A stretch of 64,000 bases of DNA, taken from contig OZ024765.1 in the NCBI GenBank assembly GCA_964016885.1, positions 22,010,001 to 22,074,000 on the forward strand, in the 5' to 3' direction. The stretch comes from Eledone cirrhosa (lineage: Eukaryota). Shown one piece after another: positions 1,481-40,562 of the stretch. Position 1 is the first letter of the stretch, and the number at the start of each line of letters is the position of its first letter. The position numbers were made by a program, and so were the translations under genes. The notes below the pieces were generated by a model. That model ran no database searches, was not told the origin of the DNA, and was given only the letters and a program-made list of their open reading frames with translations.

Positions 1481-1721
1481 GTTTGTGATGATAAGAATAC
1501 ATGTCATGACGGCAGCCATTTTGCTGTTTTGGGAGGAAGTGCTGAAATGCCGTGGGCTTTTGACCGTCTTTATCTCATGGATATCACTGATGTTCTTCAC
1601 GATATGAAGCTGAAATTTGATTCTCATTTCCACATCCTTCACCATATTGAGACAACCAATGGAACTGAGTTACCATCACACCTAATTCCTGATTCAACTA
1701 TTATTCATATTCCGGCAATAA
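1481..1721 (+). CDS. Hemocyanin exon, C-terminal part of functional unit e
   Basis: TTTCAG acceptor ends at 1480. Translation VCDDKNTCHDGSHFAVLGGSAEMPWAFDRLYLMDIT...IIHIPAI contains the hemocyanin LGGxxEMPWAFDRLY motif. GTAAGT donor at 1722 gives a phase-1 linker intron. FU identity is inferred from its position before FU-f. Confidence 0.9.
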
Positions 1722-2963: not shown

Positions 2964-3625
2964 GACAAGACAAACAAAGATTTATTCCACACAACAGAAT
3001 CCGTCGAAACATCAACTCTTTGGAAGAAAGAGATGTCCAAAATATCATGGCCGCCTTAACACGTATGAAAGAAGATGAGAGCAGTTTTGGATTCCAGACT
3101 GTTGCTAGTTATCACGGCTCTATAATGTGTCCTGATCCAGAGAATGCTAAATACTCTTGTTGCCAACATGGTATGGCTACTTTCCCTCACTGGCATCGTG
3201 TTTATATCTTACAATTTGAAGAAGCTCTCCGAAGACATGGTTCTAATGTGGCAGTTCCTTACTGGGACTGGACAACGGCTAGTGACAAATTACCAAATCT
3301 TTTGTCTACTTCTGATTATTATGATGCATGGAGTGATATTGTCGTTGAAAACCCTTTCCTCAGAGGTTACATCAAGTCAGAAGATACATACACTGTACGA
3401 GATATTCAAGCAGAGTTATTCACCTTTGCCAAGGGAGGTAAAGAGTCATTGTTGTACGAACAAGTTCTTTTGATGCTCGAACAAGACGATTTTTGTGATT
3501 TTGAAGTCCAATTCGAAGTTATACACAATTCCGTCCATTATCTTTTGGGAGGACATCAGAAATATGCCATGTCTAGCTTGGTGTACAGTTCTTTTGATCC
3601 AATATTTTACATTCATCATTCCATG
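2964..3625 (+). CDS. Hemocyanin functional unit f, exon 1
   Basis: ACAG acceptor ends at 2963 (phase 1). Contains IRRNINSL, CuA motifs SYHG / CCQHG / FPHWHR, PYWDW, and CuB motifs HNSVH and FDPIFYIHHSM. GTAAGT donor at 3626 (phase 0). Close to the recalled octopus FU-f sequence. Confidence 0.95.
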
Positions 3626-4228: not shown

Positions 4229-4811
4229 GTTGACCGTCTCTGGGCAATTTGGCAAGATTTACAAGAACACAGAAAGATGCCGTACGACAAAGCTTACTGC
4301 GCCCTTGACCAAATGTCTGTAGCTATGAAACCTTTCATCTGGGAATCAAACCCAAGTCTCAATACCCGAGCTCTGTCTACTCCAAGTATGTTATTTGATT
4401 ACAAAGGTTTTGGATATAAATACGACAACCTAGATTTATATGGTATGGATACGGAACATTTGGAGAAAGAAATTCAGAAACTGAAAAACAAGGACCGTGT
4501 GTTTGCTACTTTCTTACTTCACGGCATCAAAACATCGGCTGATGTCCACCTGAAGTTATGTGATGACAAGGAATGTTCCGAAGTTGGTGTTGTGTTTATT
4601 TTAGGAGGAGAAACTGAGATGCCTTGGCATTTTGATAGAACCTTTAAAATGGACATCACAAGTGTTCTAAAAGACAAGGGTATCGCCATGGAGTCTCTCT
4701 TTGATCACAACAGTAAAGTACATTTAGAGATTGAAATAACAACAATAGATGGCGTTGTTTTAGATCAGAGTTCTCTCCCTAAACCTTCATTGGTATACTC
4801 TCCCGCTAAAG
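4229..4811 (+). CDS. Hemocyanin functional unit f, exon 2
   Basis: TTTCAG acceptor ends at 4228. VDRLWAIWQ...LGGETEMPWHFDR...YSPAK continues exon 1 in frame (HHSM|VDRLW). GTAAGA donor at 4812 (phase 1). Confidence 0.95.
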
Positions 4812-5626: not shown

Positions 5627-6826
5627 GATTTGTCCATCGACACCACCATGTTGACCATGCTGAGGGAGCAATTATTAGGAAGAATGTTAACAGTTTGACC
5701 CCATCTGAGATTGACAACTTAAGACACGCTTTAACTGATGTTATGGCTGACCACTCTGAGAATGGATTCCAGAAAATTGCTGGTTACCACGGCATGCCAC
5801 TTGGCTGTAAATATGAGAATGGTACAGAATATGCCTGCTGTCAACATGGAATGGTAACATTCCCCCATTGGCATAGACTGTTTGTAAAGCAGATGGAAGA
5901 TGCCATGAAGTTAAAAGGTGCCAAGACAGGTATTCCATATTGGGACTGGACTATGCCTTTTACTGAGCTTCCAGTGTTGGTTACTGAAGAGAAGGACAAT
6001 CCATTCCACCACGGACATATTGATTCAGTTGATAAAATAACCACAAGACAACCGCGATATCAACTCTTTGAAGGTCGATCTTTCTTCTATGATCAAATTA
6101 TGTTTGCATTGGAACAAACTAACTTCTGTGACTTTGAAATCCAGTTTGAAATATCCCACAATGCCATTCACTCTTGGATAGGAGGAAGTTCTCCTTATGG
6201 AATGTCCACTCTCCATTACACATCCTATGATCCACTCTTTTACTTACATCATTCAAATACAGATCGAATCTGGGCTGTCTGGCAAGCATTGCAGAAGTAT
6301 CGAGGACTTCCCTATAATAGCGCCAACTGTGAAATCAATAAACTTAAGAAAGATCTCAACCCATTCAGTTCTGATGCCAACCATAACGAAGACACGAAAT
6401 CTCACTCTACAGGAGAGTTAGCTTTTGATTATCACAATTTACACTACGACTATGATAACATCATCTTCCATGGAATGACCATTCCACAGTTGGAAGTTGA
6501 ATTACACAATTCAAAGAAAAAAGACAGAGTATATGCTGGCTTCCTGTTACGTACCATTGGACAATCTGCTGATGTTGAATTTGATGTATGTCGCACGGAC
6601 GGAGAATGTAAACCAGCAGGAACATTCTGTATTTTAGGTGGCAAGTACGAGATGTTCTGGGCATTTGATCGTCTCTTTAAATACGACATAAGTAGCACAT
6701 TAGAACAACTCGGCCTCCATGCTCACGATCAGTTCAGTATGAAGATAACTATAAAGTCTACAGATGGAACCATATTACCTTCCAGTCTTATACCACCACC
6801 AAGTATCACTTATCTTCCAGCTTCAG
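5627..6826 (+). CDS. Hemocyanin functional unit g (single exon)
   Basis: GACAG acceptor ends at 5626. AIIRKNVNSLTPS, YHGMPLGCKYENGTEYACCQHGMVTFPHWHR and HNAIHSWIGGSSPYGMSTLHYTSYDPLFYLHHSNTDR closely match the recalled Octopus FU-g; all six Cu-binding His are present. It ends at CAG|GTTAGT (donor) or, if unspliced, at TAG 6829-6831. Confidence 0.95.
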
Positions 6827-7149
6827 GTTAGTTCAGCCATTTGCAATTTTCATTATTTCCATCATGGCAGCTAACAAATCTCACAATATATTTTCTATTA
6901 TTTATTCTTCCAAACTTTAAATACTTTTAAAATAAGATCAATGAAATATTTGATGTTATATTTAACTATATAATTTCTTAAATTAATTGATATTATGTAG
7001 GTTGTTAGATAAATTCTATCAGTTGTGTAAACTCCAGATCAGTGGAGGTAGTTTGTCTCGTATACACCAGAACTGATCTCACATCCAGCTTTATTATATA
7101 GCTTCTCTCTCGAATATATAAGGTATATTTCATTGTGAAACATGGATGA

Positions 7150-10100
7150 CACACAGACACTGACATACATACACAGAGAGACACGCATACACTGACATAC
7201 ATACAGAGAGGACACATACACTGACATACATACAGAGAGAGACATACATACACAGACATACATACAGAGAGAGACATACATACACTGACATACATACAGA
7301 GAGACACATACATACACTGACATATATACAGAGAGACACATACACTGACATACATACAGAGAGAGACACATACACTGATATACATACAGAGAGAGACATA
7401 CACTGACATACATACAGAGAGAGACACACAGACACTGACATACATACAGAGAGAGACATACACTGACATACATACAGAGAGACACACATACACTGACATA
7501 CATACAGAGAGACACATACACTGACATACATACAGAGAGACACACATACACTGACATACATACAGAGAGAGACACACATACACAGACATACATACAGAGA
7601 GACACATATACTGACATACATACAGAGAGACACACATACACTGACATACATACAGAGAGACACATATACACTGACATACATACAGAGAGACACACATACA
7701 CTGACATACATACAGAGAGAGACACACATACACAGACATACATACAGAGAGACACATATACTGACATACATACAGAGAGACACACATACACTGACATACA
7801 TACAGAGAGAGACACACATACACAGACATACATACAGAGAGACACATATACACTGACATACATACAGAGAGAGACACATACACTGACATACATACAGAGA
7901 GACACACATACACTGACATACATACAGACACACATACACTGACATACATACAGAGAGACACATACACTGACATACATACAGACACACATACACTGACATA
8001 CATACAGAGAGACACATATACTGACATACATACAGAGAGACACACATACACTGACATACATACAGAGAGAGACACACATACACAGACATACATACAGAGA
8101 GACACATATACTGACATACATACAGAGAGACACACATACACTGACATACATACAGAGAGACACACATACACTGACATACATACAGACACACATACACTGA
8201 CATACATACAGAGAGACACATACACTGACATACATACAGAGAGACACATATACTGACATACATACAGAGAGACACACATACACTGACATACATACAGAGA
8301 GACACACATACACTGACATACATACAGACACACATACACTGACATACATACAGAGAGACACATATACTGACATACATACAGAGAGACACACATACACTGA
8401 CATACATACAGAGAGACACACATACACTGACATACATACAGACACACATACACTGACATACATACAGAGAGACACATACACTGACATACATACAGAGAGA
8501 CACACATACATACAGAGAGACACATACACTGACATACATACAGACACACATACACTGACATACATACAGACACACATATATACAGAGAGACACATACACT
8601 GACATACATACAGAGAGACACATACACTGACATACATACAGACACACATACATACAGAGAGACACACATACACTGACATACATACAGAGAGACACATACA
8701 CTGACATATATACAGAGAGACACATACACTGACATACATACAGACACACATATATACAGAGAGACACATACACTGACATACATACAGAGAGACACACATA
8801 CACTGACATACATACAGAGAGACACACATACACTGACATACATACAGAGAGACACACATACACTGACATACATACAGAGAGACACACATACACTGACATA
8901 CATACAGAGAGACACATACACTGACATACATACAGACACACATACATACAGAGAGACACACATACACTGACATACATACAGAGAGACACATACACTGACA
9001 TATATACAGAGAGACACATACACTGACATACATACAGACACACATATATACAGAGAGACACATACACTGACATACATACAGAGAGACACACATACACTGA
9101 CATACATACAGAGAGACACACATACACTGACATACATACAGAGAGACACATACACTGACATACATACAGAGAGAGACACATACACTGACATACATACAGA
9201 GAGACACATACACTGACATACATACAGAGAGAGACACATACACTGACATACATACAGAGAGAGACATACACTGACATACATACAGAGAGAGACACATACA
9301 CTGACATACATACAGAGAGACACACATACACTGACATACATACAGAGAGAGACATACACTGACATACATACAGAGAGACACTACACTGACATACATACAG
9401 AGAGACACATACACTGACATACATACAGAGAGACACACATACACTGACATACATACAGAGAGAGACATACACTGACATACATACAGAGAGAGACACATAC
9501 ACTGACATACATACAGAGAGACACACATACACTGACATACATACAGAGAGAGACATACACTGACATACATACAGAGAGACACTACACTGACATACATACA
9601 GAGAGACACATACACTGACATACATACAGAGAGACACACATACACTGACATACATACAGAGAGACACACATACACTGACATACATACAGAGAGAGACATA
9701 CACTGACATACATACAGAGAGAGACACATACACTGACATACATACAGAGAGAGACACATACACTGACATACATACAGAGAGAGACACATACACTGACATA
9801 CATACAGAGAGACACATACACTGACATACATACAGAGAGAGACACATACACTGACATACATACAGAGAGACACACATACACTGACATACATACAGAGAGA
9901 GACATACACTGACATACATACAGAGAGAGACACATACACTGACATACATACAGAGAGACACACATACACTGACATACATACAGAGAGAGACATACACTGA
10001 CATACATACAGAGAGACACACATACACTGACATACATACAGAGAGACACATACACTGACATACATACAGAGAGACACACATACACTGACATACATACAGA

Positions 10101-13100
10101 GAGAGACATACACTGACATACATACAGAGAGAGACATACACTGACATACATACAGAGAGACACACATACACTGACATACATACAGAGAGACACATACACT
10201 GACATACATACAGAGAGACACACATACACTGACATACATACAGAGAGAGACATACACTGACATACATACAGAGACACACATACACTGACATACATACAGA
10301 GAGACACACATACACTGACATACATACAGAGAGACACATACACTGACATACATACAGAGAGACACACATACACTGACATACATACAGAGAGAGACATACA
10401 CTGACATACATACAGAGAGACACATACACTGACATACATACAGAGAGACATACATACACTGACATACATACAGAGAGAGACATACACTGACATACATACA
10501 GAGAGAGACATACACTGACATACATACAGAGAGAGACATACACTGACATACATACAGAGAGACACATACACTGACATACATACAGAGAGACGACAACATA
10601 CACTGACATACATACAGAGAGACACATACACTGACATACATACAGAGAGACACACATACACTGACATACATACAGAGAGAGACACATACACTGACATACA
10701 TACAGAGAGACACATACACTGACATACATACAGAGAGACACACATACACTGACATACATACAGAGAGACACATACACTGACATACATACAGAGAGACACA
10801 CATACACTGACATACATACAGAGAGACACACATACACTGACATACATACAGAGAGACACACATACACTGACATACATACAGAGAGAGACACATACACTGA
10901 CATACATACAGAGAGACAACATACACTGACATACATACAGAGAGACACATACACTGACATACATACAGAGAGACACACATACACTGACATACATACAGAG
11001 AGAGACACATACACTGACATACATACAGAGAGACACATACACTGACATACATACAGAGAGAGACATACACTGACATACATACAGAGAGACACATACACTG
11101 ACATACATACAGAGAGAGACACATACACTGACATACATACAGAGAGACACATACACTGACATACATACAGAGAGACACATACACTGACATACATACAGAG
11201 AGACACACATACACTGACATACATACAGAGAGACACATACACTGACATACATACAGAGAGACACATACACTGACATACATACAGAGAGAGACATACACTG
11301 ACATACATACAGAGACACATACACTGACATACATACAGAGAGAGACACATACACTGACATACATACAGAGAGAGACACATACACTGACATACATACAGAG
11401 AGGCACACATACACTGACATACATACAGAGAGACACATACACTGACATACATACAGAGAGGCACACATACACTGACATACATACAGAGAGACACATACAC
11501 TGACATACATACAGAGAGGCACACATACACTGACATACATACAGAAGAGACACACATACACTGACATACATACAGAGACACATACACTGACATACATACA
11601 CAGAGACACACATACACTGACATACATACAGAGACACATACACTGACATACATACAGAGAGACACATACACTGACATACATACAGAGAGACACATACACT
11701 GACATACATACAGAGAGACACATACACTGACATACATACAGAGAGACACATACACTGACATACATACAGAGAGACACATACACTGACATACATACAGAGA
11801 GACACACATACACTGACATACATACAGAGAGAGACACATACACTGACATACATACAGAGAGACACATACACTGACATACATACAGAGAGACATACATACA
11901 CTGACATACATACAGAGAGACACATACTACTGACATACATACAGAGAGACACACATACACTGACATACATACAGAGAGAGACACATACACTGACATACAT
12001 ACAGAGAGACACATACACTGACATACATACAGAGAGACACAATACACTGACATACATACAGAGAGACACATACACTGACATACATACAGAGAGACACATA
12101 CACTGACATACATACAGAGAGACACATACACTGACATACATACAGAGAGACACATACACTGACATACATACAGAGAGACACACATACACTGACATACATA
12201 CAGAGAGCACACATACACTGACATACATACAGAGAGACACATACACTGACATACATACAGAGAGACACACATACACTGACATACATACAGAGAGACACAC
12301 ATACACTGACATACATACAGAGAGACACATACACTGACATACATACAGAGAGACACACATACACTGACATACATACAGAGAGACACATACACTGACATAC
12401 ATACAGAGAGACACACATACACTGACATACATACAGAGAGACACACATACACTGACATACATACAGAGAGAGACACATACACTGACATACATACAGAGAG
12501 ACACACATACACTGACATACATACAGAGAGACACACATACACTGACATACATACAGAGAGACACATATACACTGACATACATACAGAGAGACACATACAC
12601 TGACATACATACAGAGAGACACATACACTGACATACATACAGAGAGACACACATACACTGACATACATACAGAGAGACACACATACACTGACATATATAC
12701 AGAGAGACACATACACTGACATACATACAGAGAGACACATACACTGACATACATACAGAGAGACACATACACTGACATACATACAGAGAGAGAGAGACAT
12801 ACACTGACATACATACAGAGAGACACATACACTGACATACATACAGAGAGGCACACATACACTGACATACATACAGAGAGACACATACACTGACATACAT
12901 ACAGAGAGACACATACACTGACATACATACAGAGAGACACACATACACTGACATACATACAGAGACACATACACTGACATACATACAGAGAGACACACAT
13001 ACACTGACATACATACAGAGAGACACATACACTGACATACATACAGAGAGACACACATACACTGACATACATACAGAGACACATACACTGACATACATAC

Positions 13101-16100
13101 AGAGAGGCACATACACTGACATACATACAGAGAGACACATACACTGACATACATACAGAGAGACACACATACACTGACATATATACAGAGAGACACACAT
13201 ACACTGACATACATACAGAGAGGCACACATACACAGACATACATACAGAGAGACACATACACTGACATACATAGAGACACACTGACATACATACAGACAC
13301 ATACACTGACATACATACAGAGAGACACATACACTGACATACATACAGAGAGACACATACACTGACATACATACAGAGAGACACATACACTGACATACAT
13401 ACAGAGAGACACATACACTGACATACATACAGAGAGACACACATACACTGACATACATACAGAGAGGCACATACACTGACATACATACAGAGACACATAC
13501 ACTGACATACATACAGAGAGACACACATACACTGACATACATACAGAGAGACACATATACACTGACATACATACAGAGAGACACATACACTGACATACAT
13601 ACAGAGAGACACACATACACTGACATACATACAGAGAGGCACACATACACTGACATACATACAGAGAGACACATACACTGACATACATACAGAGAGACAC
13701 ACATACACTGACATACATACAGAGAGGCACACATACACTGACATACATACAGAGAGACACATACACTGACATACATACAGAGAGACACACATACACTGAC
13801 ATACATACAGAGAGGCACACATACACTGACATACATACAGAGAGCACACATACACTGACATACATACAGAGAGACACACATACACTGACATACATACAGA
13901 GAGACACATACACTGACATACATACAGAGAGACACACATACACTGACATACATACAGAGAGACACATACACTGACATACATACAGAGAGACACACATACA
14001 CTGACATACATACAGAGAGACACATACACTGACATACATACAGAGAGACACACATACACTGACATACATACAGAGAGACACACATACACTGACATACATA
14101 CAGAGACACATACACTGACATACATACAGAGAGGCACATACACTGACATACATACAGAGACACATACACTGACATACATACAGAGAGACACATACACTGA
14201 CATACATACAGACACACATACACTGACATACATACAGAGAGACACATACACTGACATACATACAGAGAGACACACATACACTGACATACATACAGAGAGG
14301 CACATACACTGACATACATACAGAGACACATACACTGACATACATACAGAGAGACACATACACTGACATACATACAGAGCACACATACACTGACATACAT
14401 ACAGAGAGACACATACACTGACATACATACAGAGAGGACACACATACACTGACATACATACAGAGAGACACACATACACTGACATACATACAGAGAGACA
14501 CACATACACTGACATACATACAGAGAGGACACATACACTGACATACATACAGAGAGACACATACACTGACATACATACAGAGAGACACATACACTGACAT
14601 ACATACAGAGAGACACACATACACTGACATACATACAGAGAGACACATACACTGACATACATACAGAGAGACACACATACACTGACATACATACAGAGAG
14701 ACACACATACACTGACATACATACAGAGAGACACACATACACTGACATACATACAGAGAGGACACACATACACTGACATACATACAGAGAGACACACATA
14801 CACTGACATACATACAGAGAGACACACATACACTGACATACATACAGAGAGACACACATACACTGACATACATACAGAGAGACACATACACTGACATACA
14901 TACAGAGAGACACATACACTGACATACATACAGAGAGACACACATACACTGACATACATACAGAGAGACACATACACTGACATACATACAGAGAGACACA
15001 CATACACTGACATACATACAGAGAGACACACATACACTGACATACATACAGAGAGACACATACACTGACATACATACAGAGAGACACATACACTGACATA
15101 CATACAGAGAGACACATACACTGACATACATACAGAGAGACACATACACTGACATACATACAGAGAGACACATACACTGACATACATACAGAGAGGCACA
15201 CATACACTGACATACATACAGAGAGACACATACACTGACATACATACAGAGAGACACACATACACTGACATACATACAGAGAGAGACATACACTGACATA
15301 CATACAGAGAGACACATACACTGACATACATACAGAGAGGCACATACACTGACATACATACAGAGAGACACATACACTGACATACATACAGAGAGGCACA
15401 TACACTGACATACATACAGAGAGACACATACACTGACATACATACAGAGAGACACATACACTGACATACATACAGAGAGGCACATACACTGACATACATA
15501 CAGAGAGACACATACACTGACATACATACAGAGAGGACACATACACTGACATACATACAGAGAGAGACATACACTGACATATATACAGAGAGACACATAC
15601 ACTGACATACATACAGAGAGGCACATACACTGACATACATACAGAGAGGACACACATACACTGACATACATACAGAGAGACACACATACACTGACATACA
15701 TACAGAGAGAACACATACACTGACATACATACAGAGAGACACATACACTGACATACATACAGAGAGACACACATACACTGACATACATACAGAGAGACAC
15801 ATACACTGACATACATACAGAGAGACACATACACTGACATACATACAGAGAGACACATACACTGACATACATACAGAGAGACACATACACTGACATACAT
15901 ACAGAGAGGACACATACACTGACATACATACAGAGAGGACACATACACTGACATACATACAGAGAGACACATACACTGACATACATACAGAGAGGACACA
16001 CATACACTGACATACATACAGAGAGACACATACACTGACATACATACAGAGAGACACACATACACTGACATACATACAGAGAGACACATACACTGACATA

Positions 16101-19100
16101 CATACAGAGAGACACACATACACTGACATACATACAGAGAGACACATACACTGACATACATACAGAGAGGCACATACACTGACATACATACAGAGACACA
16201 TACACTGACATACATACAGAGAGGCACACATACATACAGAGAGACACACATACACTGACATACATACAGAGAGACACACATACACTGACATACATACAGA
16301 GAGACACACATACACTGACATACATACAGAGAGGCACATACACTGACATACATACAGAGAGGCACACATACATACAGAGAGACACACATACACTGACATA
16401 CATACAGAGAGGCACATACACTGACATACATACAGAGACACATACACTGACATACATACAGAGAGACACACATACACTGACATACATACAGAGAGACACA
16501 TACACTGACATACATACAGAGAGGCACACATACACTGACATACATACAGAGAGACACATACACTGACATACATACAGAGAGAGACATACACTGACATACA
16601 TACAGAGAGACACACATACACTGACATACATACAGAGAGGCACACATACACTGACATACATACAGAGAGAGACATACACTGACATACATACAGAGAGACA
16701 CACATACACTGACATACATACAGAGAGGCACACATACACTGACATACATACAGAGAGAGACATACACTGACATACATACAGAGAGGCACACATACACTGA
16801 CATACATACAGAGCACACATACACTGACATACATACAGAGAGACACATACACTGACATACATACAGAGAGGACACACATACACTGACATACATACAGAGA
16901 GACACACATACACTGACATACATACAGAGAGGCACACATACACTGACATACATACAGAGAGACACATACACTGACATACATACAGAGAGAGACACACAAC
17001 ACTGACATACATACAGAGAGACACATACACTGACATACATACAGAGAGACACATACACTGACATACATACAGAGAGACACACATACACTGACATACATAC
17101 AGAGAGGCACACATACACTGACATACATACAGAGAGACACATACACTGACATACATACAGAGAGGCACACATACACTGACATACATACAGACACACATAC
17201 ACTGACATACATACAGAGAGGACACACATACACTGACATACATACAGAGAGACACACACACTGACATACATACAGAGAGACACATACACTGACATACATA
17301 CAGAGAGACACATACACTGACATACATACAGAGAGCACACATACACTGACATACATACAGAGAGGCACACATACACTGACATACATACAGAGACACACAT
17401 ACACTGACATACATACAGAGAGACACATACACTGACATACATACAGAGAGACACATACACTGACATACATACAGAGAGACACATACACTGACATACATAC
17501 AGAGAGACACATACACTGACATACATACAGAGAGGCACATACACTGACATACATACAGAGAGAGACACATACACTGACATACATACAGAGAGAGACATAC
17601 ACTGACATACATACAGAGAGGCACACATACACTGACATACATACAGAGAGAGACATACACTGACATACATACAGAGAGAGACATACACTGACATACATAC
17701 AGAGAGGCACACATACACTGACATACATACAGAGAGAGACCATACACTGACATACATACAGAGAGAGACATACACTGACATACATACAGAGAGGCACACA
17801 TACACTGACATACATACAGAGAGAGACATACACTGACATACATACAGAGAGGCACACATACACTGACATACATACAGAGAGGACACATACACTGACATAC
17901 ATACAGAGAGAGACATACACTGACATACATACAGAGAGGCACACATACACTGACATACATACAGAGAGAGACATACACTGACATACATACAGAGAGAGAC
18001 ATACACTGACATACATACAGAGAGGCACACATACACTGACATACATACAGAGAGACACATACACTGACATACATACAGAGAGACACACATACACTGACAT
18101 ACATACAGAGAGACACACATACACTGACATACATACAGAGAGGCACACATACACTGACATACATACAGAGAGACACATACACTGACATACATACAGAGAG
18201 AGACATACACTGACATACATACAGAGAGACACATACACTGACATACATACAGAGAGAGACATACACTGACATACATACAGAGAGGCACACATACACTGAC
18301 ATACATACAGAGAGACACATACACTGACATACATACAGAGAGAGACATACACTGACATACATACAGAGAGACACATACACTGACATACATACAGAGAGAC
18401 ATACACTGACATACATACAGAGAGGCACACATACACTGACATACATACAGAGAGAGACATACACTGACATACATACAGAGAGAGACATACACTGACATAC
18501 ATACAGAGAGAGACATACACTGACATACATACAGAGAGACACATACACTGACATACATACAGAGAGAGACACATACACTGACATACATACAGAGAGGCAC
18601 ACATACACTGACATACATACAGAGAGAGACATACACTGACATACATACAGAGAGAGAGACATACACTGACATACATACAGAGAGAGACATACACTGACAT
18701 ACATACAGAGAGAGACATACACTGACATACATACAGAGAGGCACACATACACTGACATACATACAGAGAGGACACATACACTGACATACATACAGAGAGA
18801 CACACATACACTGACATACATACAGAGAGAGACATACACTGACATACATACAGAGAGCACACATACACTGACATACATACAGAGAGACACATACACTGAC
18901 ATACATACAGAGAGACACACATACACTGACATACATACAGAGAGAGACACATACACTGACATACNNNNNNNNNNNNNNNNNNNNNNNNNNNNNNNNNNNN
19001 NNNNNNNNNNNNNNNNNNNNNNNNNNNNNNNNNNNNNNNNNNNNNNNNNNNNNNNNNNNNNNNNNNNNNNNNNNNNNNNNNNNNNNNNNNNNNNNNNNNN

Positions 19101-22100
19101 NNNNNNNNNNNNNNNNNNNNNNNNNNNNNNNNNNNNNNNNNNNNNNNNNNNNNNNNNNNNNNNNACTCTACCACATACACTGACATACATACAGAGAGCA
19201 CACATACACTGACATACATACAGAGAGACACATACACTGACATACATACAGAGAGACACACATACACTGACATACATACAGAGAGACACACATACACTGA
19301 CATACATACAGAGAGAGACACATACACTGACATACATACAGAGAGACACACATACACTGACATACATACAGAGAGACACATACACTGACATACATACAGA
19401 GAGAGACACATACACTGACATACATACAGAGAGACACATACACTGACATACATACAGAGAGACACATACACTGACATACATACAGAGAGACACACATACA
19501 CTGACATACATACAGAGAGACACACATACACTGACATACATACAGAGAGAGACATACACACTGACATACATACAGAGAGACACATACACTGACATACATC
19601 AGACATACCTGACATACATACAGAGAGACACACATACACTGACATACATACAGAGAGACACATACACTGACATACATACAGAGAGACACATACACTGACA
19701 TACATACAGAGAGACACACATACACTGACATACATACAGAGAGACACACATACACTGACATACATACAGAGAGACACATACACTGACATACATACAGAGA
19801 GACACACATACACTGACATACATACAGAGAGACACACATACACTGACATACATACAGAGAGACACACATACACTGACATACATACAGAGAGACACATACA
19901 CTGACATACATACAGAGAGACACACATACACTGACATACATACAGAGAGACACATACACTGACATACATACAGAGAGACACATACACTGACATACATACA
20001 GAGAGAGACACATACACTGACATACATACAGAGAGAGCACCATACACTGACATACATACAGAGAGACACATACACTGACATACATACAGAGAGACACATA
20101 CACTGACATACATACAGAGAGACACATACACTGACATACATACAGAGAGACACACATACACTGACATACATACAGAGAGGACACATACACTGACATACAT
20201 ACAGAGAGACACATACACTGACATACATACAGAGAGACACACATACACTGACATACATACAGAGAGAGCACACATACACTGACATACATACAGAGAGACA
20301 CACATACACTGACATACATACAGAGAGACACATACACTGACATACATACAGAGAGACACATACACTGACATACATACAGAGAGACACACATACACTGACA
20401 TACATACAGAGAGACACATACACTGACATACATACAGAGAGACACACATACACTGACATACATACAGAGAGACACATACACTGACATACATACAGAGAGA
20501 CACATACACTGACATACATACAGAGAGAGACACATACACTGACATACATACAGAGAGAGCACATACACTGACATACATACAGAGAGAGCACACATACACT
20601 GACATACATACAGAGAGACACACATACACTGACATACATACAGAGAGACACATACACTGACATACATACAGAGAGACACCATACACTGACATACATACAG
20701 AGAGAGACACATACACTGACATACATACAGAGAGACACATACACTGACATACATACAGAGAGACACATACACTGACATACATACAGAGAGACACATACAC
20801 TGACATACATACAGAGAGACACATACACTGACATACATACAGAGAGAGACACATACACTGACATACATACAGAGAGACACATACACTGACATACATACAG
20901 AGAGACACATACACTGACATACATACAGAGAGACACATACACTGACATACATACAGAGAGACACATACACTGACATACATACAGAGAGACATACACTGAC
21001 ATACATACAGAGAGACACACATACACTGACATACATACAGAGAGACACATACACTGACATACATACAGAGAGACACATACACTGACATACATACAGAGAG
21101 ACACACATACACTGACATACATACAGAGAGACACATACACTGACATACATACAGAGAGACATACACTGACATACATACAGAGAGAGACACATACACTGAC
21201 ATACATACAGAGAGACATACACTGACATACATACAGAGACACATACACTGACATACATACAGAGAGACACATACACTGACATACATACAGAGAGACACAT
21301 ACACTGACATACATACAGAGAGACACATACACTGACATACATACAGAGAGACACACATACACTGACATACATACAGAGAGACACACATACACTGACATAC
21401 ATACAGAGAGACACACATACACTGACATACATACAGAGAGACACCATACACTGACATACATACAGAGAGACCACTACACTGACATACATACAGAGAGACA
21501 CATACACTGACATACATACAGAGAGACACACATACACTGACATACATACAGAGAGACACATACACTGACATACATACAGAGAGACACATACACTGACATA
21601 CATACAGAGAGACACATACACTGACATACATACAGAGAGACACACATACACTGACATACATACAGAGAGAGACACATACACTGACATACATACAGAGAGA
21701 CACATACACTGACATACATACAGAGAGACACATACACTGACATACATAGAGAACACATACACTGACATACATACAGAGAGACACATACACTGACATACAT
21801 ACAGAGAGACACACATACACTGACATACATACAGAGAGACACACATACACTGACATACATACAGAGAGACACATACACTGACATACATACAGAGAGACAC
21901 ACATACACTGACATACATACAGAGAGACACATACACTGACATACATACAGAGAGACACATACACTGACATACATACAGAGAGACACATACACTGACATAC
22001 ATACAGAGAGACACATACACTGACATACATACAGAGAGACACACTACACTGACATACATACAGAGGAGACACATACACTGACATACATACAGAGAGACAC

Positions 22101-25100
22101 ACATAACACTGACATACATACAGAGAGACACATACACTGACATACATACAGAGAGGACACATACACTGACATACATACAGAGAGACACATACACTGACAT
22201 ACATACAGAGAGACACACATACACTGACATACATACAGAGAGACACATACACTGACATACATACAGAGAGACACATACACTGACATACATACAGAGAGAC
22301 ACATACACTGACATACATACAGAGAGACACATACACTGACATACATACAGAGAGACACATACACTGACATACATACAGAGAGACACATACACTGACATAC
22401 ATACAGAGAGACACACATACACTGACATACATACAGAGAGACACATACACTGACATACATACAGAGAGACACATACACTGACATACATACAGAGAGACAC
22501 ATACACTGACATACATACAGAGAGACACATACACTGACATACATACAGAGAGGCACACATACACTGACATACATACAGAGAGACACATACACTGACATAC
22601 ATACAGAGAGACACACATACACTGACATACATACAGAGAGACACATACACTGACATACATACAGAGAGACACATACACTGACATACATACAGAGAGACAC
22701 ACATACACTGACATACATACAGAGACAATACACTGACATACATACAGAGACACATACACTGACATACATACAGAGAGACACATACACTGACATACATACA
22801 GAGAGACACATACACTGACATACATACAGAGAGACACATACACTGACATACATACAGAGAGACACACATACACTGACATACATACAGAGAGGACACATAC
22901 ACTGACATACATACAGAGAGACACACATACACTGACATACATACAGAGAGACACATACACTGACATACATACAGAGAGACACATACACTGACATACATAC
23001 AGAGAGACACACATACACTGACATACATACAGAGAGACACATACACTGACATACATACAGAGAGACACACATACACTGACATACATACAGAGAGACACAT
23101 ACACTGACATACATACAGAGAGACACACATACACTGACATACATACAGAGAGACACATACACTGACATACATACAGAGAGACACACATACACTGACATAC
23201 ATACAGAGAGACACACATACACTGACATACATACAGAGAGACACACATACACTGACATACATACAGAGAGACACATACACTGACATACATACAGAGAGAC
23301 ACACATACACTGACATACATACAGAGAGACACATACACTGACATACATACAGAGAGACACATACACTGACATACATACAGAGAGACACACATACACTGAC
23401 ATACATACAGAGAGACACACATACACTGACATACATACAGAGAGACACACATACACTGACATACATACAGAGAGACACATACACTGACATACATACAGAG
23501 AGACACATACACTGACATACATACAGAGAGACACATACACTGACATACATACAGAGAGACACATACACTGACATACATACAGAGAGACCACATACACTGA
23601 CATACATACAGAGAGACACATACACTGACATACATACAGAGAGACACACATACACTGACATACATACAGAGAGACACACATACACTGACATACATACAGA
23701 GAGACACATACACTGACATACATACAGAGAGACACATACACTGACATACATACAGAGAGGACACATACACTGACATACATACAGAGAGAGACACATACAC
23801 TGACATACATACAGAGAGACACATACACTGACATACATACAGAGAGAACACATACACTGACATACATACAGAGAGACACATACACTGACATACATACAGA
23901 GAGACCACATACACTGACATACATACAGAGAGACACATACACTGACATACATACAGAGAGACACATACACTGACATACATACAGAGAGACACATACACTG
24001 ACATACATACAGAGAGACACATACACTGACATACATACAGAGAGACACATACACTGACATACATACAGAGAGACACATACACTGACATACATACAGAGAG
24101 ACACACATACACTGACATACATACAGAGAGACACATACACTGACATACATACAGAGAGACACATACACTGACATACATACAGAGAGACACACATACACTG
24201 ACATACATACAGAGAGCACCATACATACAGAGAGACACATACACTGACATACATACAGAGAGACACACATACACTGACATACATACAGAGAGACACACAT
24301 ACACTGACATACATACAGAGAGACACACATACACTGACATACATACAGAGAGACACACATACACTGACATACATACAGAGAGACACATACACTGACATAC
24401 ATACAGAGAGACACACATACACTGACATACATACAGAGAGACACACATACACTGACATACATACAGAGAGACACACATACACTGACATACATACAGAGAG
24501 ACACATACACTGACATACATACAGAGAGACACATACACTGACATACATACAGAGAGAGACACATACACTGACATACATACAGAGAGACACACATACACTG
24601 ACATACATACAGAGAGACACACATACACTGACATACATACAGAGAGACACACATACACTGACATACATACAGAGAGACCACATACACTGACATACATACA
24701 GAGAGACACACATACACTGACATACATACAGAGAGACACACATACACTGACATACATACAGAGAGAGACACATACACTGACATACATACAGAGAGACACA
24801 TACACTGACATACATACAGAGAGACACACATACACTGACATACATACAGAGAGACACATACACTGACATACATACAGAGAGACACCATACACTGACATAC
24901 ATACAGAGAGCACACATACACTGACATACATACAGAGAGACACACATACACTGACATACATACAGAGAGCACACATACACTGACATACATACAGAGAGAC
25001 ACATACACTGACATACATACAGAGAGACACATACACTGACATACATACAGAGAGACACATACACTGACATACATACAGAGAGACACATACACTGACATAC

Positions 25101-28100
25101 ATACAGAGAGACACATACACTGACATACATACAGAGAGACACATACACTGACATACATACAGAGAGACACACATACACTGACATACATACAGAGAGGACA
25201 CATACACTGACATACATACAGAGAGGCACACATACACTGACATACATACAGAGAGACACACATACACTGACATACATACAGAGAGACACACATACACTGA
25301 CATACATACAGAGAGACACACATACACTGACATACATACAGAGAGACACATACACTGACATACATACAGAGAGACACATACACTGACATACATACAGAGA
25401 GACACATACACTGACATACATACAGAGAGACACATACACTGACATACATACAGAGAGGCACATACACTGACATACATACAGAGAGAGACACATACACTGA
25501 CATACATACAGAGAGAGACACATACACTGACATACATACAGAGAGACACATACACTGACATACATACAGAGAGACACATACACTGACATACATACAGAGA
25601 GACACACATACACTGACATACATACAGAGAGACACATACACTGACATACATACAGAGAGACACACATACACTGACATACATACAGAGAGACACATACACT
25701 GACATACATACAGAGAGAGACACATACACTGACATACATACAGAGAGACACATACACTGACATACATACAGAGAGACACATACACTGACATACATACAGA
25801 GAGACACACATACACTGACATACATACAGAGAGACACACATACACTGACATACATACAGAGAGACACACATACACTGACATACATACAGAGAGACCACAT
25901 ACACTGACATACATACAGAGAGACACATACACTGACATACATACAGAGAGGACACATACACTGACATACATACAGAGAGACACATACACTGACATACATA
26001 CAGAGAGACACACATACACTGACATACATACAGAGAGAGACACATACACTGACATACATACAGAGAGACCACATACACTGACATACATACAGAGAGACAC
26101 ACATACACTGACATACATACAGAGAGACACACATACACTGACATACATACAGAGAGGCACACATACACTGACATACATACAGAGAGACACATACACTGAC
26201 ATACATACAGAGAGACACACATACACTGACATACATACAGAGAGGCACACATACACTGACATACATACAGAGAGACACATACACTGACATACATACAGAG
26301 AGACACATACACTGACATACATACAGAGAGACACACATACACTGACATACATACAGAGAGAGACACATACACTGACATACATACAGAGAGACACACATAC
26401 ACTGACATACATACAGAGAGACACACATACACTGACATACATACAGAGAGAGACATACACTGACATACATACAGAGAGACACACATACACTGACATACAT
26501 ACAGAGAGACACATACACTGACATACATACAGAGAGACACACATACACTGACATACATACAGACACACATACACTGACATACATACAGAGAGACACATAC
26601 ACTGACATACATACAGAGAGACACACATACACTGACATACATACAGAGAGACACATACACTGACATACATACAGAGAGACACATACACTGACATACATAC
26701 AGAGAGACACATACACTGACATACATACAGAGAGACACACATACACTGACATACATACAGAGAGACACATACACTGACATACATACAGAGAGACACATAC
26801 ACTGACATACATACAGAGAGACACACATACACTGACATACATACAGAGAGGCACACATACACTGACATACATACAGAGAGACACATACACTGACATACAT
26901 ACAGAGAGACACACATACACTGACATACATACAGAGAGACACATACACTGACATACATACAGAGAGACACATACACTGACATACATACAGAGAGACACAT
27001 ACACTGACATACATACAGAGAGACACACATACACTGACATACATACAGAGAGACACACATACACTGACATACATACAGAGAGACACATACACTGACATAC
27101 ATACAGAGAGGACACATACACTGACATACATACAGAGAGACACATACACTGACATACATACAGAGAGACACACATACACTGACATACATACAGAGAGACA
27201 CATACACTGACATACATACAGAGAGACACATACACTGACATACATACAGAGAGACACATACACTGACATACATACAGAGAGACACACATACACTGACATA
27301 CATACAGAGAGACACACATACACTGACATACATACAGAGAGACACATACACTGACATACATACAGAGAGACACATACACTGACATACATACAGAGAGACA
27401 CACATACACTGACATACATACAGAGAGACACACATACACTGACATACATACAGAGAGACACACATACACTGACATACATACAGAGAGACACACATACACT
27501 GACATACATACAGAGAGGCACACATACACTGACATACATACAGAGAGACACACATACACTGACATACATACAGAGAGGCACACATACACTGACATACATA
27601 CAGAGAGACACACATACACTGACATACATACAGAGAGAGACATACACTGACATACATACAGAGAGACACATACACTGACATACATACAGAGAGAGACACA
27701 TACACTGACATACATACAGAGAGAGACACATACACTGACATACATACAGAGAGACACATACACTGACATACATACAGAGAGAGACACATACACTGACATA
27801 CATACAGAGAGAGACACATACACTGACATACATACAGAGAGACACACATACACTGACATACATACAGAGAGGCACACATACACTGACATACATACAGAGA
27901 GACACATACACTGACATACATACAGAGAGACACATACACTGACATACATACAGAGAGACACACATACACTGACATACATACAGAGAGAGACACATACACT
28001 GACATACATACAGAGAGACACACATACACTGACATACATACAGAGAGAGACACATACACTGACATACATACAGAGAGACACATACACTGACATACATACA

Positions 28101-31100
28101 GAGAGAGACACATACACTGACATACATACAGAGAGAGACACATACACTGACATACATACAGAGAGACACACATACACTGACATACATACAGAGAGGCACA
28201 CATACACTGACATACATACAGAGAGACACATACACTGACATACATACAGAGAGACACATACACTGACATACATACAGAGAGACACACATACACTGACATA
28301 CATACAGAGAGAGACACATACACTGACATACATACAGAGAGACACACATACACTGACATACATACAGAGAGACACACATATACTGACATACATACAGAGA
28401 GACACACATACACTGACATACATACAGAGAGACACATACACTGACATACATACAGAGAGACACACATACACTGACATACATACAGACACACATACACTGA
28501 CATACATACAGAGAGACACATACACTGACATACATACAGAGAGACACACATACACTGACATACATACAGAGAGACACATACACTGACATACATACAGAGA
28601 GACACATACACTGACATACATACAGAGAGACACATACACTGACATACATACAGAGAGAGACATACACTGACATACATACAGAGAGACACATACACTGACA
28701 TACATACAGAGAGACACATACACTGACATACATACAGAGAGACACACATACACTGACATACATACAGAGAGAGACATACACTGACATACATACAGAGAGA
28801 CACATACACTGACATACATACAGAGAGACACACATACACTGACATATATACAGAGAGACACACATACACTGACATACATACAGACACACATACACTGACA
28901 TACATACAGAGAGACACACATACACTGACATACATACAGAGAGACACATACACTGACATACATACAGAGAGAGACATACACTGACATACATACAGAGAGA
29001 CACACATACACTGACATACATACAGAGAGACACACATACATACAGAGAGGCACACATACACTGACATACATACAGAGAGACACACATACACTGACATACA
29101 TACAGAGAGACACATACACTGACATACATACAGAGAGACACACATACACTGACATACATACAGAGAGACACACATACACTGACATACATACAGAGAGACA
29201 CATACACTGACATACATACAGAGAGACACACATACACTGACATACATACAGAGAGACACACATACACTGACATACATACAGAGAGACACATACACTGACA
29301 TACATACAGAGAGACACACATACATACAGAGAGACACACATACACTGACATACATACAGAGAGACACATACACTGACATACATACAGAGAGACACATACA
29401 CTGACATACATACAGAGAGACACATACACTGACATACATACAGAGACACACATACACTGACATACATACAGAGAGGCACACATACACTGACATACATACA
29501 GAGAGACACACATACACTGACATACATACAGAGAGAGACACATACACTGACATACATATAGAGAGAGACATACACTGACATACATACAGAGAGACACACA
29601 TACACTGACATACATACAGAGAGGCACACATACACTGACATACATACAGAGAGAGACACATACACTGACATACATACAGAGAGGCACATACACTGACATA
29701 CATACAGAGAGACACATACACTGACATACATACAGAGAGACACATACACTGACATACATACAGAGAGACACATACACTGACATACATACAGAGAGGCACA
29801 TACACTGACATACATACAGAGAGACACATACACTGACATACATACAGAGAGACACACATACACTGACATACATACAGAGAGACACACATACACTGACATA
29901 CATACAGAGAGACACATACACTGACATACATACAGAGAGACACATACACTGACATACATACAGAGAGACACATACACTGACATACATACAGAGAGACACA
30001 TACACTGACATACATACAGAGAGACACATACACTGACATACATACAGAGAGAGACACATACACTGACATACATAGAGACACATACACTGACATACATACA
30101 GACACATACACTGACATACATACAGAGAGACACACATACACTGACATACATACAGAGAGACACACATACACTGACATACATACAGAGAGACACACATACA
30201 CTGACATACATACAGAGAGACACATACACTGACATACATACAGAGAGACACACATACACTGACATACATACAGAGAGACACATACACTGACATACATACA
30301 GAGAGACACATACACTGACATACATACAGAGAGAGACACATACACTGACATACATACAGAGAGGCACATACACTGACATACATACAGAGACACACATACA
30401 CTGACATACATACAGAGAGACACACATACACTGACATACATACAGAGAGACACATACACTGACATACATACAGAGAGACACATACACTGACATACATACA
30501 GAGAGGCACATACACTGACATACATACAGAGAGGCACACATACACTGACATACATACAGAGAGGCACACATACACTGACATACATACAGAGAGACACACA
30601 TACACTGACATACATACAGAGAGACACATACACTGACATACATACAGAGACACACATACACTGACATACATACAGAGACACATACACTGACATACATACA
30701 GAGAGACACATACACTGACATACATACAGAGAGGCACACATACACTGACATACATACAGAGAGACACATACACTGACATACATACAGAGAGACACATACA
30801 CTGACATACATACAGAGAGAGACACATACACTGACATACATACAGAGAGGCACATACACTGACATACATACAGAGACACACATACACTGACATACATACA
30901 GAGAGACACACATACACTGACATACATACAGAGAGACACATACACTGACATACATACAGAGAGACACATACACTGACATACATACAGAGAGGCACATACA
31001 CTCTGACATACATACAGAGAGGCACATACACTGACATACATACAGAGAGACACATACACTGACATACATACAGAGAGAGACACATACACTGACATACATA

Positions 31101-32650
31101 CAGAGAGGCACACATACACTGACATACATACAGAGAGACATACACTGACATACATACAGAGAGAGACACATACACTGACATACATACAGAGAGAGACACA
31201 TACACTGACATACATACAGAGAGACACATACACTGACATACATACAGAGAGAGACATACACTGACATACATACAGAGAGACACATACACTGACATACATA
31301 CAGAGAGAGACACATACACTGACATACATACAGAGAGACACATACACTGACATACATACAGAGAGAGACATACACTGACATACATACAGAGAGAGACATA
31401 CACTGACATACATACAGAGAGACACACATACACTGACATACATACAGAGAGAGACATACACTGACATACATACAGAGACACATACACTGACATACATACA
31501 GAGAGACACACATACACTGACATACATACAGAGAGACACACATACACTGACATACATACAGAGAGACACACATACACTGACATACATACAGAGACACATA
31601 CACTGACATACATACAGAGAGACACACATACACTGACATATATACAGAGAGACACATACACTGACATACATACAGAGGCACACATACACTGACATACATA
31701 CAGAGAGACACACATATACACTGACATACATACAGAGACACATACACTGACATACATACAGAGAGACACACATACACTGACATACATACAGAGGCACACA
31801 TACACTGACATACATACAGAGAGACACACATATACACTGACATACATACAGAGACACATACACTGACATACATACAGAGAGACACACATACACTGACATA
31901 CATACAGAGAGACACACATACACTGACATATATACAGAGAGACACATACACTGACATACATACAGAGAGACACATACACTGACATACATACAGAGAGACA
32001 CATACACTGACAGACATACAGAGAGACACATACACTGACATACATACAGAGAGACACACACTGACATACATACAGAGAGACACACACTGACATACATACA
32101 GAGAGAGATATACACTGACATACATACAGAGAGACACATACACTGACATACATAGAGAGAGACACACATACACTGACATACATACAGAGAGACACATACA
32201 CTGACATACATACAGAGAGAGACATACACTGACATACATACAAAGAGACACATACACTGACATACATACAGAGAGAGATGTACACTGACATACATAGAGA
32301 GAGACACACATACACTGACATACATACAGAGAGACATACACTGACATACATACAGAGAGAGACACATACACTGACATACATAGAGACACATACACTGACA
32401 TACATAGAGACACACTGACATACATACAGACACATACACTGACATACATAGACACACATACACTGACATACATACAGAGAGACACACACACATATTTACA
32501 AACACACATACACATACATACATACAAACACACAGATATACACAGAGAAAAGTACAAACACACACATAGACATACATGGAAGCACATACACATACATACA
32601 AACACACACACACAGAGAGACATACATGGAAACACACACATACACAAACA
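7150..32650. repeat. Giant satellite array, 28-30 bp unit ACACATACACTGACATACATACAGAGAG, about 25.5 kb
   Basis: Uninterrupted head-to-tail units that vary mainly in AC/AG dinucleotide number. Orientation is the same on both sides of the gap. The array degenerates into (CA)n at the right edge. Confidence 0.99.
18965..19164. other. Assembly gap (200 N)
   Basis: Run of N inside the satellite; the true length is unknown. Confidence 0.99.
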
Positions 32651-32704
32651 CTCCCCCACTAAATATTTCAACCAATTAAAAATGTCTTCTTTTGTCTTTT
32701 CCAG

Positions 32705-32770
32705 CTTGAAAACCTCCCTACAATTACTCCTGTCTTTTTGTTTAATAAAACATTCAAAAGATGTCTCTAC
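32705..32770 (+). CDS. Candidate terminal exon of hemocyanin (5 coding nt CT-TGA plus short 3' UTR)
   Basis: Polypyrimidine acceptor TCTTCTTTTGTCTTTTCCAG ends at 32704. Joining to the phase-1 G at 6826 gives GCT TGA (…LPASA*). AATAAA at 32744-32749. Confidence 0.6.
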
Positions 32771-35380: not shown

Positions 35381-35762
35381 TTAAAACTCTGAGTCCAACA
35401 CCATAACCACTTGGAACTGTTTTTTTTTTTTGTCTTTTAACCCTTTAAAATTTACATTACTCTATATTTACTATTGTATCTCCACATACATTCACACACA
35501 TATATACACACACATGCATTCACACACACACGCACACGCATTCACCCACCCACATACACGCATTCACATACACACACACACACACACACATATTCACACA
35601 CACACACTGCTAAAAAAAAATGTCTTTTTTTTTTTCTTCTGGAAAAATCCATTTGTTTAAAAAAAAAAAAAAAATTGTTTGAGAAAAATCAATCAAATCA
35701 AAAAAAAAAAACCCCCAATAAATCAATAAATTTGATCAATTGATTAATTGAGTTCAATAAGT

Positions 35763-37109
35763 TCAGGAACTTTCGTCGGAGCTGCTGTCAGATCCGAAGA
35801 TCTCTTCTTCGTCTTTCTTGTTATCAGTTTCTCCATCGTTATCCCCGTCGCTGTCAGATCCGAAGATCTCTTCTTCATCCTCTTCCTTCTTCTTTTTCTT
35901 TGTCACTTCCTCCTCTTCCTCTTCTTCTTCTTCCTCTTCTTCTTCTTCTTCATCCTCTTCTTCTTCTTCTTCTGCTTCCTCCTCCTCCCCCTCCTCCTCC
36001 TTATTTCTGTCCTTTTTCTTCTTTTCGTCGCTGCTGTCGTCGCCGCCGCTGTCGTCTTCTTCTTCTTCTTCTTCCATTTCTTCTCCCTCCTCTTCTCCTC
36101 CTCCTCCTCCTCCTTCTTCCTCTTCTTCAGCTTCACTTTCGCTGCTCGAACCAAAGATGGCTTCCTTGTCCTTCTTGTCCACTGCTGCCCCGCTGTCGCT
36201 CTCAGCCTCACTCCCGCTGCCACTGGCCCCGCCTTTCCTCTTCTTCTCCTCCTCCTCCTCCTCCTCTTCTTCATCTTCCTCCTGGCCTCCTTTCTCTCCT
36301 ACTTCTGCCCTCTTTCTCTTTCTCCTCTTCTTCTTCTTCTTCTTTCCCTCTTCCCCCTCCCCATCTTCGCTCCCGCTACTCGCGACGCCGCTGCCGCTGC
36401 CACTGCTGGCGCTGCGCTTGCTCTTCTTGCTGCTTCCCCCGCTACTGCTGCCACTGCCACCACCAGACTTGACGCTCTCGTTGTCGCTGCTCTCCCCCCC
36501 TTGCTCGCTGCCCTCTGCAGACTTCTTGTCCTCGTCTCCCTTCGTCGAGCCCCCTTCCTCCTCTACCTCCTCCTTTGCAGAGCCCTCCTCCTTTGCAGAG
36601 CCCTCCTCTTCGTCCTCGTTCTCCTCCTCCTCCTCCTCCTCCTCCTGCTGAGGCTCCAACATGGTCAGGCGGACGTTCTGCGCGGCCACCTCCTTGTCGT
36701 AGAGGTCGCGATGCTTCACGATCAGCCGCGACTTGGCCACCAGGGCGGTTCCAGCCCCTTGCTTTCGTCGTTTGCTCAGGCGTACGCGCGTCTCCAGCTC
36801 GTTGTAGTAGACGACGTCGTCTCGGAAGATGAAGAAGTACGTCTCTTCGTAGCCTTTCGACAGTTTGTTCTTGACGTTCCAGTTGTACTCTCGGGCGAGA
36901 GTGTAGTCGTAGAAGTCGTCCGGCTGGTAGAGCACGTCTTCCGTCTGGTCGCGCTTCCTCTTGTTACACGTCTCCTCCGTCGGTAGGAAGTACGCCACAA
37001 ACTGCTCCCCGCTCTCGTCGACAGCACCTCGGATCATAGCTTGTGACATCTCCTCGGCTTGGATGGTGGGATTTTGTGCCTTCGGAGCAGGATCGGAATC
37101 AAATATCAC
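35763..37109 (-). CDS. PAF1: RNA polymerase II-associated factor 1, last coding exon
   Basis: CAG acceptor at 37110-37112. VIFDSDPAP...[21 protein letters not shown]...[20 protein letters not shown]...[15 protein letters not shown], then a long acidic/Ser tail and TGA at 35763. Confidence 0.95.
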
Positions 37110-40078: not shown

Positions 40079-40562
40079 TGTTAAGGTATTGTTCTCAAAA
40101 TAAATAATATCAAAATCTCATAGATTCGATATTATGTGAGGTAAAGACTTTACTGTGAAAATACAATAGTATATATAGAGTAATGTAAATGTTATGTGAG
40201 ATATTATGTGAGGTAAAGACTTTACTGTGAAAATACAATAGTATATATAGAGTAATGTAAATGTTATGTGAGATATTATGTGAGGTAAAGCCTTTACTGT
40301 GAAAATACAATAGTATATATAGAGTGGTTTCTTTATTTGCCACTAGGGCACAAAAGGTAGGGACAGATACAAGGGGGGAAGTTTACATATAATTAACGAG
40401 TACAAAAATATAACAATGAAATAACAACAACAAACGAAGTCCTCAATAGGGAGGGGGCATTAACATGGGTCGCACACACCCCAGAAAAAATGTGCAACCC
40501 TTCTCCTCAGGAGCACAAAGAGTAGGTGCTTCCTTCGTCTCCTCTTTTTCCTCTTCTTTCAT

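Follow-up and report, generated by a model that had tools for sequence, protein, structure and literature searches.

The stretch of DNA analysed here, called the window below, comprises 64,000 nucleotides (nt) of Eledone cirrhosa and carries the final exons of a hemocyanin gene on contig C26 (GenBank OZ024765.1), in a genome of 3.0 Gb. Behind the last functional unit (FU) of this gene, FU-g, lies an apparent intron of about 26 kb that is filled by a minisatellite. We consider it probable, from signals in the window and from a twin gene nearby, that this is a real, spliced phase-1 last intron, which probably derives from the former linker between FU-g and FU-h and was enlarged by a neutral expansion on the spot.

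The gene end and its terminal intron

Judged by its sequence, the gene is an intact octopod Type-R hemocyanin (the Type-R and OdH names follow PMC7931591). As in octopod Type-R genes, there are seven FUs and internal introns interrupting the signal peptide (phase 0), FU-b (phase 2), FU-e (phase 0) and FU-f (phase 0). The protein shares 86% identity across 2921 aa with the Type-R models of O. vulgaris and O. sinensis, and 70% with OdH-G. Besides this identity, it shares with Octopus Type-R (OvH/ObH, PMC7931591) a terminal Ala and an FU-g without the DPEKG segment, which corresponds to FU-g isoform 1 as defined in PMC4491423; the difference is that one Eledone copy has two 26-kb satellite introns. 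The features of the gene end are as follows, the exons being placed by exon mapping.

1481..1721, plus strand: last exon of FU-e, after a phase-0 internal intron
2964..3625, plus strand: FU-f exon 1
4229..4811, plus strand: FU-f exon 2, ending PAK-G/GTAAGA, the phase-1 donor of the f-g linker
5627..6826, plus strand: FU-g exon, 1200 nt, ending PAS-G/ in the register of the f-g linker donor
6827..32704, plus strand: putative terminal phase-1 GT-AG intron, from its signals and the twin
6827..7147, plus strand: unique sequence forming the 5' part of the intron; aligned with the twin, 314 of 320 nt are identical
7148..32492, plus strand: locus-private minisatellite with units of 26-30 nt of the type CTGACATACATACAGAGAG(AC)nATACA, from Tandem Repeats Finder and a unit count
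18965..19164, no strand: scaffold gap of 200 N within the array, presumably a placeholder of fixed size
32684..32704, plus strand: polypyrimidine tract with the AG acceptor; upstream of it the twin is identical at 57 of 59 aligned nt
32705..32765, plus strand: terminal exon, with CT (completing Ala), the TGA stop at 32707-32709 and AATAAA at 32744-32749; the 3' end is an estimate

The FU-g exon ends in CCA GCT TCA G/GTTAGT, placing a phase-1 donor CAG/GTTAGT at 6826/6827, like those of the other linker introns and as the initial annotation of this DNA had described. Ending at 32704, the acceptor GTCTTCTTTTGTCTTTTCCAG has the top pyrimidine tract among all YAG sites of the intron; CTTGA follows at 32705-32709, and the first AATAAA downstream of the FU-g exon stands at 32744. 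These signals were correctly noted before, but the acceptor had been put about 50 nt behind the satellite, where we find about 60-210 nt, depending on how the degenerate tail of the array is cut. That the gene is highly expressed, as had also been stated, does not follow from its sequence. AATAAA is absent from 6827-32704, in agreement with the earlier statement that none lies between exon and satellite; the interval holds weak variants (AATATA at 6885 and 7113, AATGAA at 6940, GATAAA at 7008 and ATTAAA at 32675). Translation confirms the two ends that had been predicted for the protein, LPASA after splicing and LPASG if the intron is retained, the latter stopping at the in-frame GGT TAG of the donor. 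We infer from these signals that the spliceosome would join 6826 to 32705 and that the protein would end in LPASA. As assembled, the intron measures 25,878 nt including the placeholder Ns, and its true length is at least about 25.7 kb.

The O. vulgaris models CAI9741815/16 and the O. sinensis model XP_036370476 end in MYHPAAA, the form predicted by splicing. Together with the gapless, 920-nt intron of the twin, these orthologue ends support the proposal that the last intron delivers two nt and the stop codon. The O. bimaculoides model XP_014789967, from a contig of 2291 bp, runs on as PAAGQSSYI, and a raw open reading frame (ORF) from Logan as PAAGQLSYIW, both resembling the unspliced form without the early stop. 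Donor and terminal Ala appear to be conserved in Octopus, and the TAG at the start of the Eledone intron seems incidental because its relatives read on without a stop there. Gene models should include the post-FU-g intron, since they otherwise read into it, as this O. bimaculoides model does.

The ends of XP_014789967.1 (GQSSYI) and of 4YD9 chain C (GKI) both look like read-through into the terminal intron, and their C-termini may be wrong.

The minisatellite array and the inverted twin

Tandem Repeats Finder describes the array with a period of 28, 877 copies and 91% matches over 7148-32492, followed by a degenerate tail to about 32640. By direct count there are about 860 units in a single orientation, 397 to the left and 459 to the right of the gap; 28- and 30-nt units predominate on either side, and variants occur in local runs. 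Two exact probes of 76 nt and 46 nt were matched genome-wide. All exact matches fall into the window array, 71 of 71 for the longer probe (22 left and 49 right of the gap) and 291 of 291 for the shorter one (111 left and 180 right), and all lie on one strand. Because the repeat is private to both sides of the gap and the twin is colinear, a wrong scaffold join, which had been named as a possible flaw, is very unlikely, and the join at the gap is very likely correct. The sense strand of the array contains one GT, no AGGT, no AATAAA and no pyrimidine tract, and with so few rival signals it offers little to mislead splicing. This scarcity need not be selected, since the composition of the unit explains it and the other large array of the same gene copy, in intron 2, is GT-rich.

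When the genome was searched with the FU-g end, C26 yielded a 99% identical copy on its opposite strand, contig C1 three copies at 64% and contig C27 weak matches. The first of these is the twin.

C26:21932113-21953659, minus strand: intact Type-R twin in inverted orientation, facing the gene of the window head to head, from exon mapping

The two inverted copies have their ATGs 11.9 kb apart and are joined without Ns, and the twin region is free of N over the 130 kb examined. Both have 13 exons and an intact frame of 2921 aa, and they differ at 23 of 8766 coding nt and at seven residues (99.7% identical). In the twin, the terminal intron measures 920 nt between the same donor and acceptor, CTTGA and AATAAA again follow, and six seed units of the window repeat lie at the matching place, which supports the proposed expansion of the satellite inside the intron. 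The terminal exon is identical at 119 of 120 nt. Both edges of the array match the sequence of the twin, which fits growth in place. That the change was growth and not loss is suggested by the homogeneity of the array and by the other introns of the twin, which measure only 0.3-3.4 kb.

Three introns account for the large differences in length: 25,844 nt in the long copy versus 3,393 nt in the twin for intron 2, 7,887 versus 1,897 nt for intron 4, and 25,878 versus 920 nt for intron 12, the terminal one. The long copy spans about 77 kb, about 60% of it array, and the twin 21.5 kb, a 3.6-fold difference. The comparison of intron length was also extended to the paralogues on C1, which have no intron at this place.

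C1:173745626-173909554: three tandem Type-A/G hemocyanin genes, ending PAKKH and PAKTH, without the terminal intron

These genes are 89-90% identical to 1JS8, and in all three the stop and the AATAAA (+88, +109 and +109) are contiguous with FU-g.

The enlarged intron 2 lies between the signal peptide and FU-a.

C26:21965912-21991755: second giant intron of the long copy, 25,844 nt, from exon mapping

Its array is gapless, 21.3 kb long and built from a different unit of 60-62 nt, of which the twin has about two; it contains 302 donor-like GTGAGT words. Because the long copy also has this array, the last intron is not uniquely expanded. A special role of the last intron is not supported, as the twin does without an array and a second 25.8-kb array intron sits at the 5' end of the long copy. 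The near-equal lengths of the two giant introns (25,844 and 25,878 nt) are probably due to chance.

Identity between the copies is 99.4-100% over most of the gene body, 200 of 200 nt before the ATG, 96% in the signal region and 91% in the 3' flank; homology extends from about 0.35 kb before the ATG to about 1.2 kb after the stop. This patchy identity of 90-100% suggests gene conversion, and the patchiness led us to drop the idea that the arrays are the borders of a conversion tract. The coding differences comprise 15 synonymous and 8 nonsynonymous changes, a ratio of nonsynonymous to synonymous differences (pN/pS) of 0.14 (p 4.5e-6), and at the seven differing residues the long copy has the residue of the outgroup (Octopus) four times and the twin twice. 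Both copies appear to be under constraint, although the suggested gene conversion weakens this point, and the long copy does not look decayed, given the low pN/pS and given that it is not the more derived copy. The repeat expansion is probably harmless, a neutral load.

The main value of the locus lies in this built-in comparison, which bears on the cost of a 55-kb intronic satellite load where promoter and coding sequence hardly differ. The 23 single-nucleotide variants tell the twin copies apart, so that the question is testable by a single RNA-seq run. Three sequencing runs (one sample, one study) yielded contigs that cross the introns without joints at the splice sites and thus behave as DNA; they may come from the assembled individual and count as no independent support. 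These contigs differ from the window at 32 places. With 18 places in repeats and position 7026 left out, 13 were checked, and 12 of them carry the letters of the twin; contigs matching the 3' flank of the long copy without differences are also present. Contig depth (8-13 in the gene body and 6-12 in the 3' flank) did not serve as a measure of copy number.

Fifty-nine evenly spaced 10-kb stretches (20 from C1, 20 from C26 and 19 from other contigs) were sampled as genomic background. Two consist of one array from end to end, five hold an array of at least 5 kb and ten an array of at least 3 kb, and tandem repeats make up 35% of the sampled bases. Long arrays are a regular feature of this genome, and the window array is an ordinary kind of event. 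For comparison, introns average 5.4 kb in O. minor, where simple repeats account for 14.7% (PMC6279123).

The closest kind of system appears to be the avian "sequence stuttering" (Hron et al. 2026, PMC12954441), which works like the window intron in showing a massive, recent and local expansion of short intronic sequence that is private to its intron, with repeats that differ from one intron of a gene to the next. The avian cases lie on a bird dot chromosome and have an exon-derived unit, whereas the octopod array has no exon-derived unit and a paralogue displays the unexpanded state. The Drosophila Y-loop genes (Fingerhut et al. 2019, PMC6508621) also have satellite-filled introns in protein-coding genes. 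There, kl-3 reaches at least 4.3 Mb, is more than 99% satellite, takes about 90 h to transcribe and depends on dedicated RNA-binding proteins, whereas the Eledone gene measures 77 kb with an intron of 25.9 kb as assembled (the unsized gap leaves the upper bound open) and has a twin without arrays. The Y-loop-like gigantism that had been proposed is not borne out, 26 kb standing against megabases.

Origin of the intron and competing explanations

In molluscan hemocyanins, phase-1 linker introns lie between all FUs, and cephalopods are without FU-h (PMC7931591, PMC8599328, PMC5201427). The terminal intron resembles these introns in its phase, its GT-AG borders and its donor right behind the C-terminal Pro motif of an FU. 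It differs in that linker introns join two FUs, whereas here no further FU follows and FU-g is joined to two bases and a stop (CT-TGA). The pattern of P-x-x-split codon behind FU-g is the same as at four of the six linker donors of the gene (PGK, PGL, PAI and PAK), the remaining two, PKH and VGHHD, having a different shape; the PAS-G register also matches four Type-A linker donors. One FU-g-like ORF continues as PGT-GMM in the same register as the window donor. The protein ends are PGKGSQQHH in Euprymna, PGTGTQLHH in Sepia pharaonis and PGRGAQH in Nautilus. Raw ORFs of the decapod cluster end in PGKGKISIS or run PGTGKISFQ, diverging from the proteins after the same Gly, as expected where a G/GTAAG donor is read through. 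These protein ends suggest an origin of the intron before octopods and decapods separated, and they suggest that the short tails with His are what is left of the g-h linker.

Because the donor is in the register of linker introns, the terminal intron is likely, though not proven, to be the g-h linker left by the loss of FU-h. The earlier proposal of such a relic gains from phase, register and the decapod proteins, and the acceptor may come from elsewhere, as no remnant of FU-h is present downstream. The history would then be as follows. A normally spliced phase-1 last intron of the Type-R gene would descend from the FU-g/FU-h linker, FU-h having been lost by truncation behind the intron, with a linker stub of five to six residues in Nautilus and decapods and of one residue in Eledone. 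The Type-A genes would have lost the terminal intron later. In one of the two Eledone copies the intron would have grown from about 0.9 to about 26 kb, the array expanding from its seed by slippage and unequal exchange, and likewise a separate array in intron 2 of that copy. In this way the post-FU-g intron would bear witness to the loss of the eighth hemocyanin domain in cephalopods. Public gene models contain it implicitly; a linker-type intron behind FU-g of cephalopods is not described in the parts of the literature examined, which count linker introns between FUs only, though other papers, or the figures and a supplement of PMC7931591, may show it. A metagenome scan gave 53 loci, none of which covers the hemocyanin FU-g end by the listed ranges.

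Several points weigh against this account. Splicing of the long copy is deduced from sequence, weak poly(A) variants are present in the first 320 nt of the intron, and between twins subject to gene conversion pN/pS is no proof of expression of the long copy itself. The orthologue protein ends are gene-model annotations, and the decapod intron is deduced from protein ends and not from DNA. The Todarodes PDB chain ends in PGTGKI, which resembles read-through, and the Argonauta models end in LPAN, one residue short of the pattern. Searched by tblastn with nine gastropod and bivalve FU-h ends, the downstream sequence of the two copies (31 kb and 47 kb) showed no remnant of FU-h (best E 0.089). Finally, none of the 20 sampled C26 stretches holds an array of at least 5 kb (longest 4,649 nt), and so a gene copy with two arrays of more than 21 kb does not simply follow the local norm; such a pair in one gene is notable, though picked after the fact.

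This scarcity on C26 also speaks for the idea that the arrays and the insert in intron 4, described below, silence, delay or strongly reduce expression of the 77-kb long copy, the twin making most Type-R protein and the arrays setting dosage. The three large insertions (introns 2, 4 and 12) all lie in one copy, and the intron-2 array is rich in donor-like words. However, the frame of the long copy is intact, its 200 nt before the ATG are unchanged relative to the twin, it is closer to the outgroup at the differing residues, and the extra 55 kb mean only tens of minutes of transcription; we regard the idea as unlikely. A broader version, in which a coleoid-wide fossil of FU-h loss sits in a natural twin experiment and the arrays set the timing or amount of hemocyanin from the long copy, seems quite doubtful; if true, satellite growth would tune the dosage of a respiratory protein. 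With similarly low probability, the terminal intron could be an ancestral intron after the last FU, or a chimera that combined the g-h donor with a post-FU-h acceptor through deletion of FU-h. The missing FU-h remnant favours such an origin, and an intron in the 3'-untranslated region was reportedly found by Lieb et al. in 2001 in both the Haliotis and the Octopus genes, which would allow a chimeric origin. Yet the tails GAQH (Nautilus), GSQQHH and GTQLHH (decapods) loosely resemble the g-h linker starts of KLH1 (GKHHEKHH) and Nucula (ATHEHH), as expected if a stop cut the FU-h exon, and the Type-A genes, closest to the gene studied by Lieb, have no intron between stop and AATAAA.

The remaining explanations concern the long copy as such. 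It is very unlikely to remain unspliced here, with the LPASG stop and polyadenylation at a weak signal before the array: the in-frame GGT TAG and the variants AATATA, AATGAA and GATAAA within 6827-7147 would allow this, but the twin has the same TAG with a short intron, relatives lack a stop there, and acceptor and terminal exon of the long copy are 97-99% identical to those of the twin, against 91% at 280-520 nt further on. We give hardly any credence to an assembly artefact, either a wrong join at the gap or haplotypes taken for two copies. The gap lies within the array, whose length is thus unmeasured, and the copies are nearly identical over most of the body; still, the repeat occurs on both sides of the gap and nowhere else, the flanks agree in order with those of the gapless twin, homology breaks off near ATG and stop, the inverted copies are connected by sequence free of Ns, and annotations of Octopus and Argonauta likewise place two to four Type-R models side by side on a single contig.

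Other features of the long copy and its surroundings

A further insert is found in the internal intron of FU-b, and a divergent relative of the hemocyanins lies on C27.

C26:21994925-22001061: insert of 6.1 kb in the internal intron of FU-b, in the long copy only, with an open frame of 1166 aa
C27:61638-67464: divergent gene resembling hemocyanins, with two pieces 58-63% identical to three-unit proteins of Octopus

By its N-terminal motif, the 1166-aa frame looks like an endonuclease/reverse transcriptase of a long interspersed nuclear element. The units of the Octopus three-unit hemocyanin-like proteins match FU-a, FU-b and FU-c and not FU-h. In intron 1 of both copies (C26:21953430-21953660 and 21965510-21965740), signal exon 1 recurs as a degenerate duplicate (ATGGGACCAGCCCATAGC...) that has an ATG and a GTAAG donor of its own and may be an alternative first coding exon.

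On the minus strand of the window, 35760-37050 is a GC- and pyrimidine-rich stretch, in which a minus-strand frame would be acidic and lysine-rich; the GC-rich blocks beside it, near 41000-43000 and 47000-49000, are probably mobile elements. A 72-nt minisatellite family occupies 1875-2318, 40128-40325, 45917-46404 and 53060-54283 of the window. Unlike the private array of the last intron, it recurs in introns and flanks here and on other contigs.

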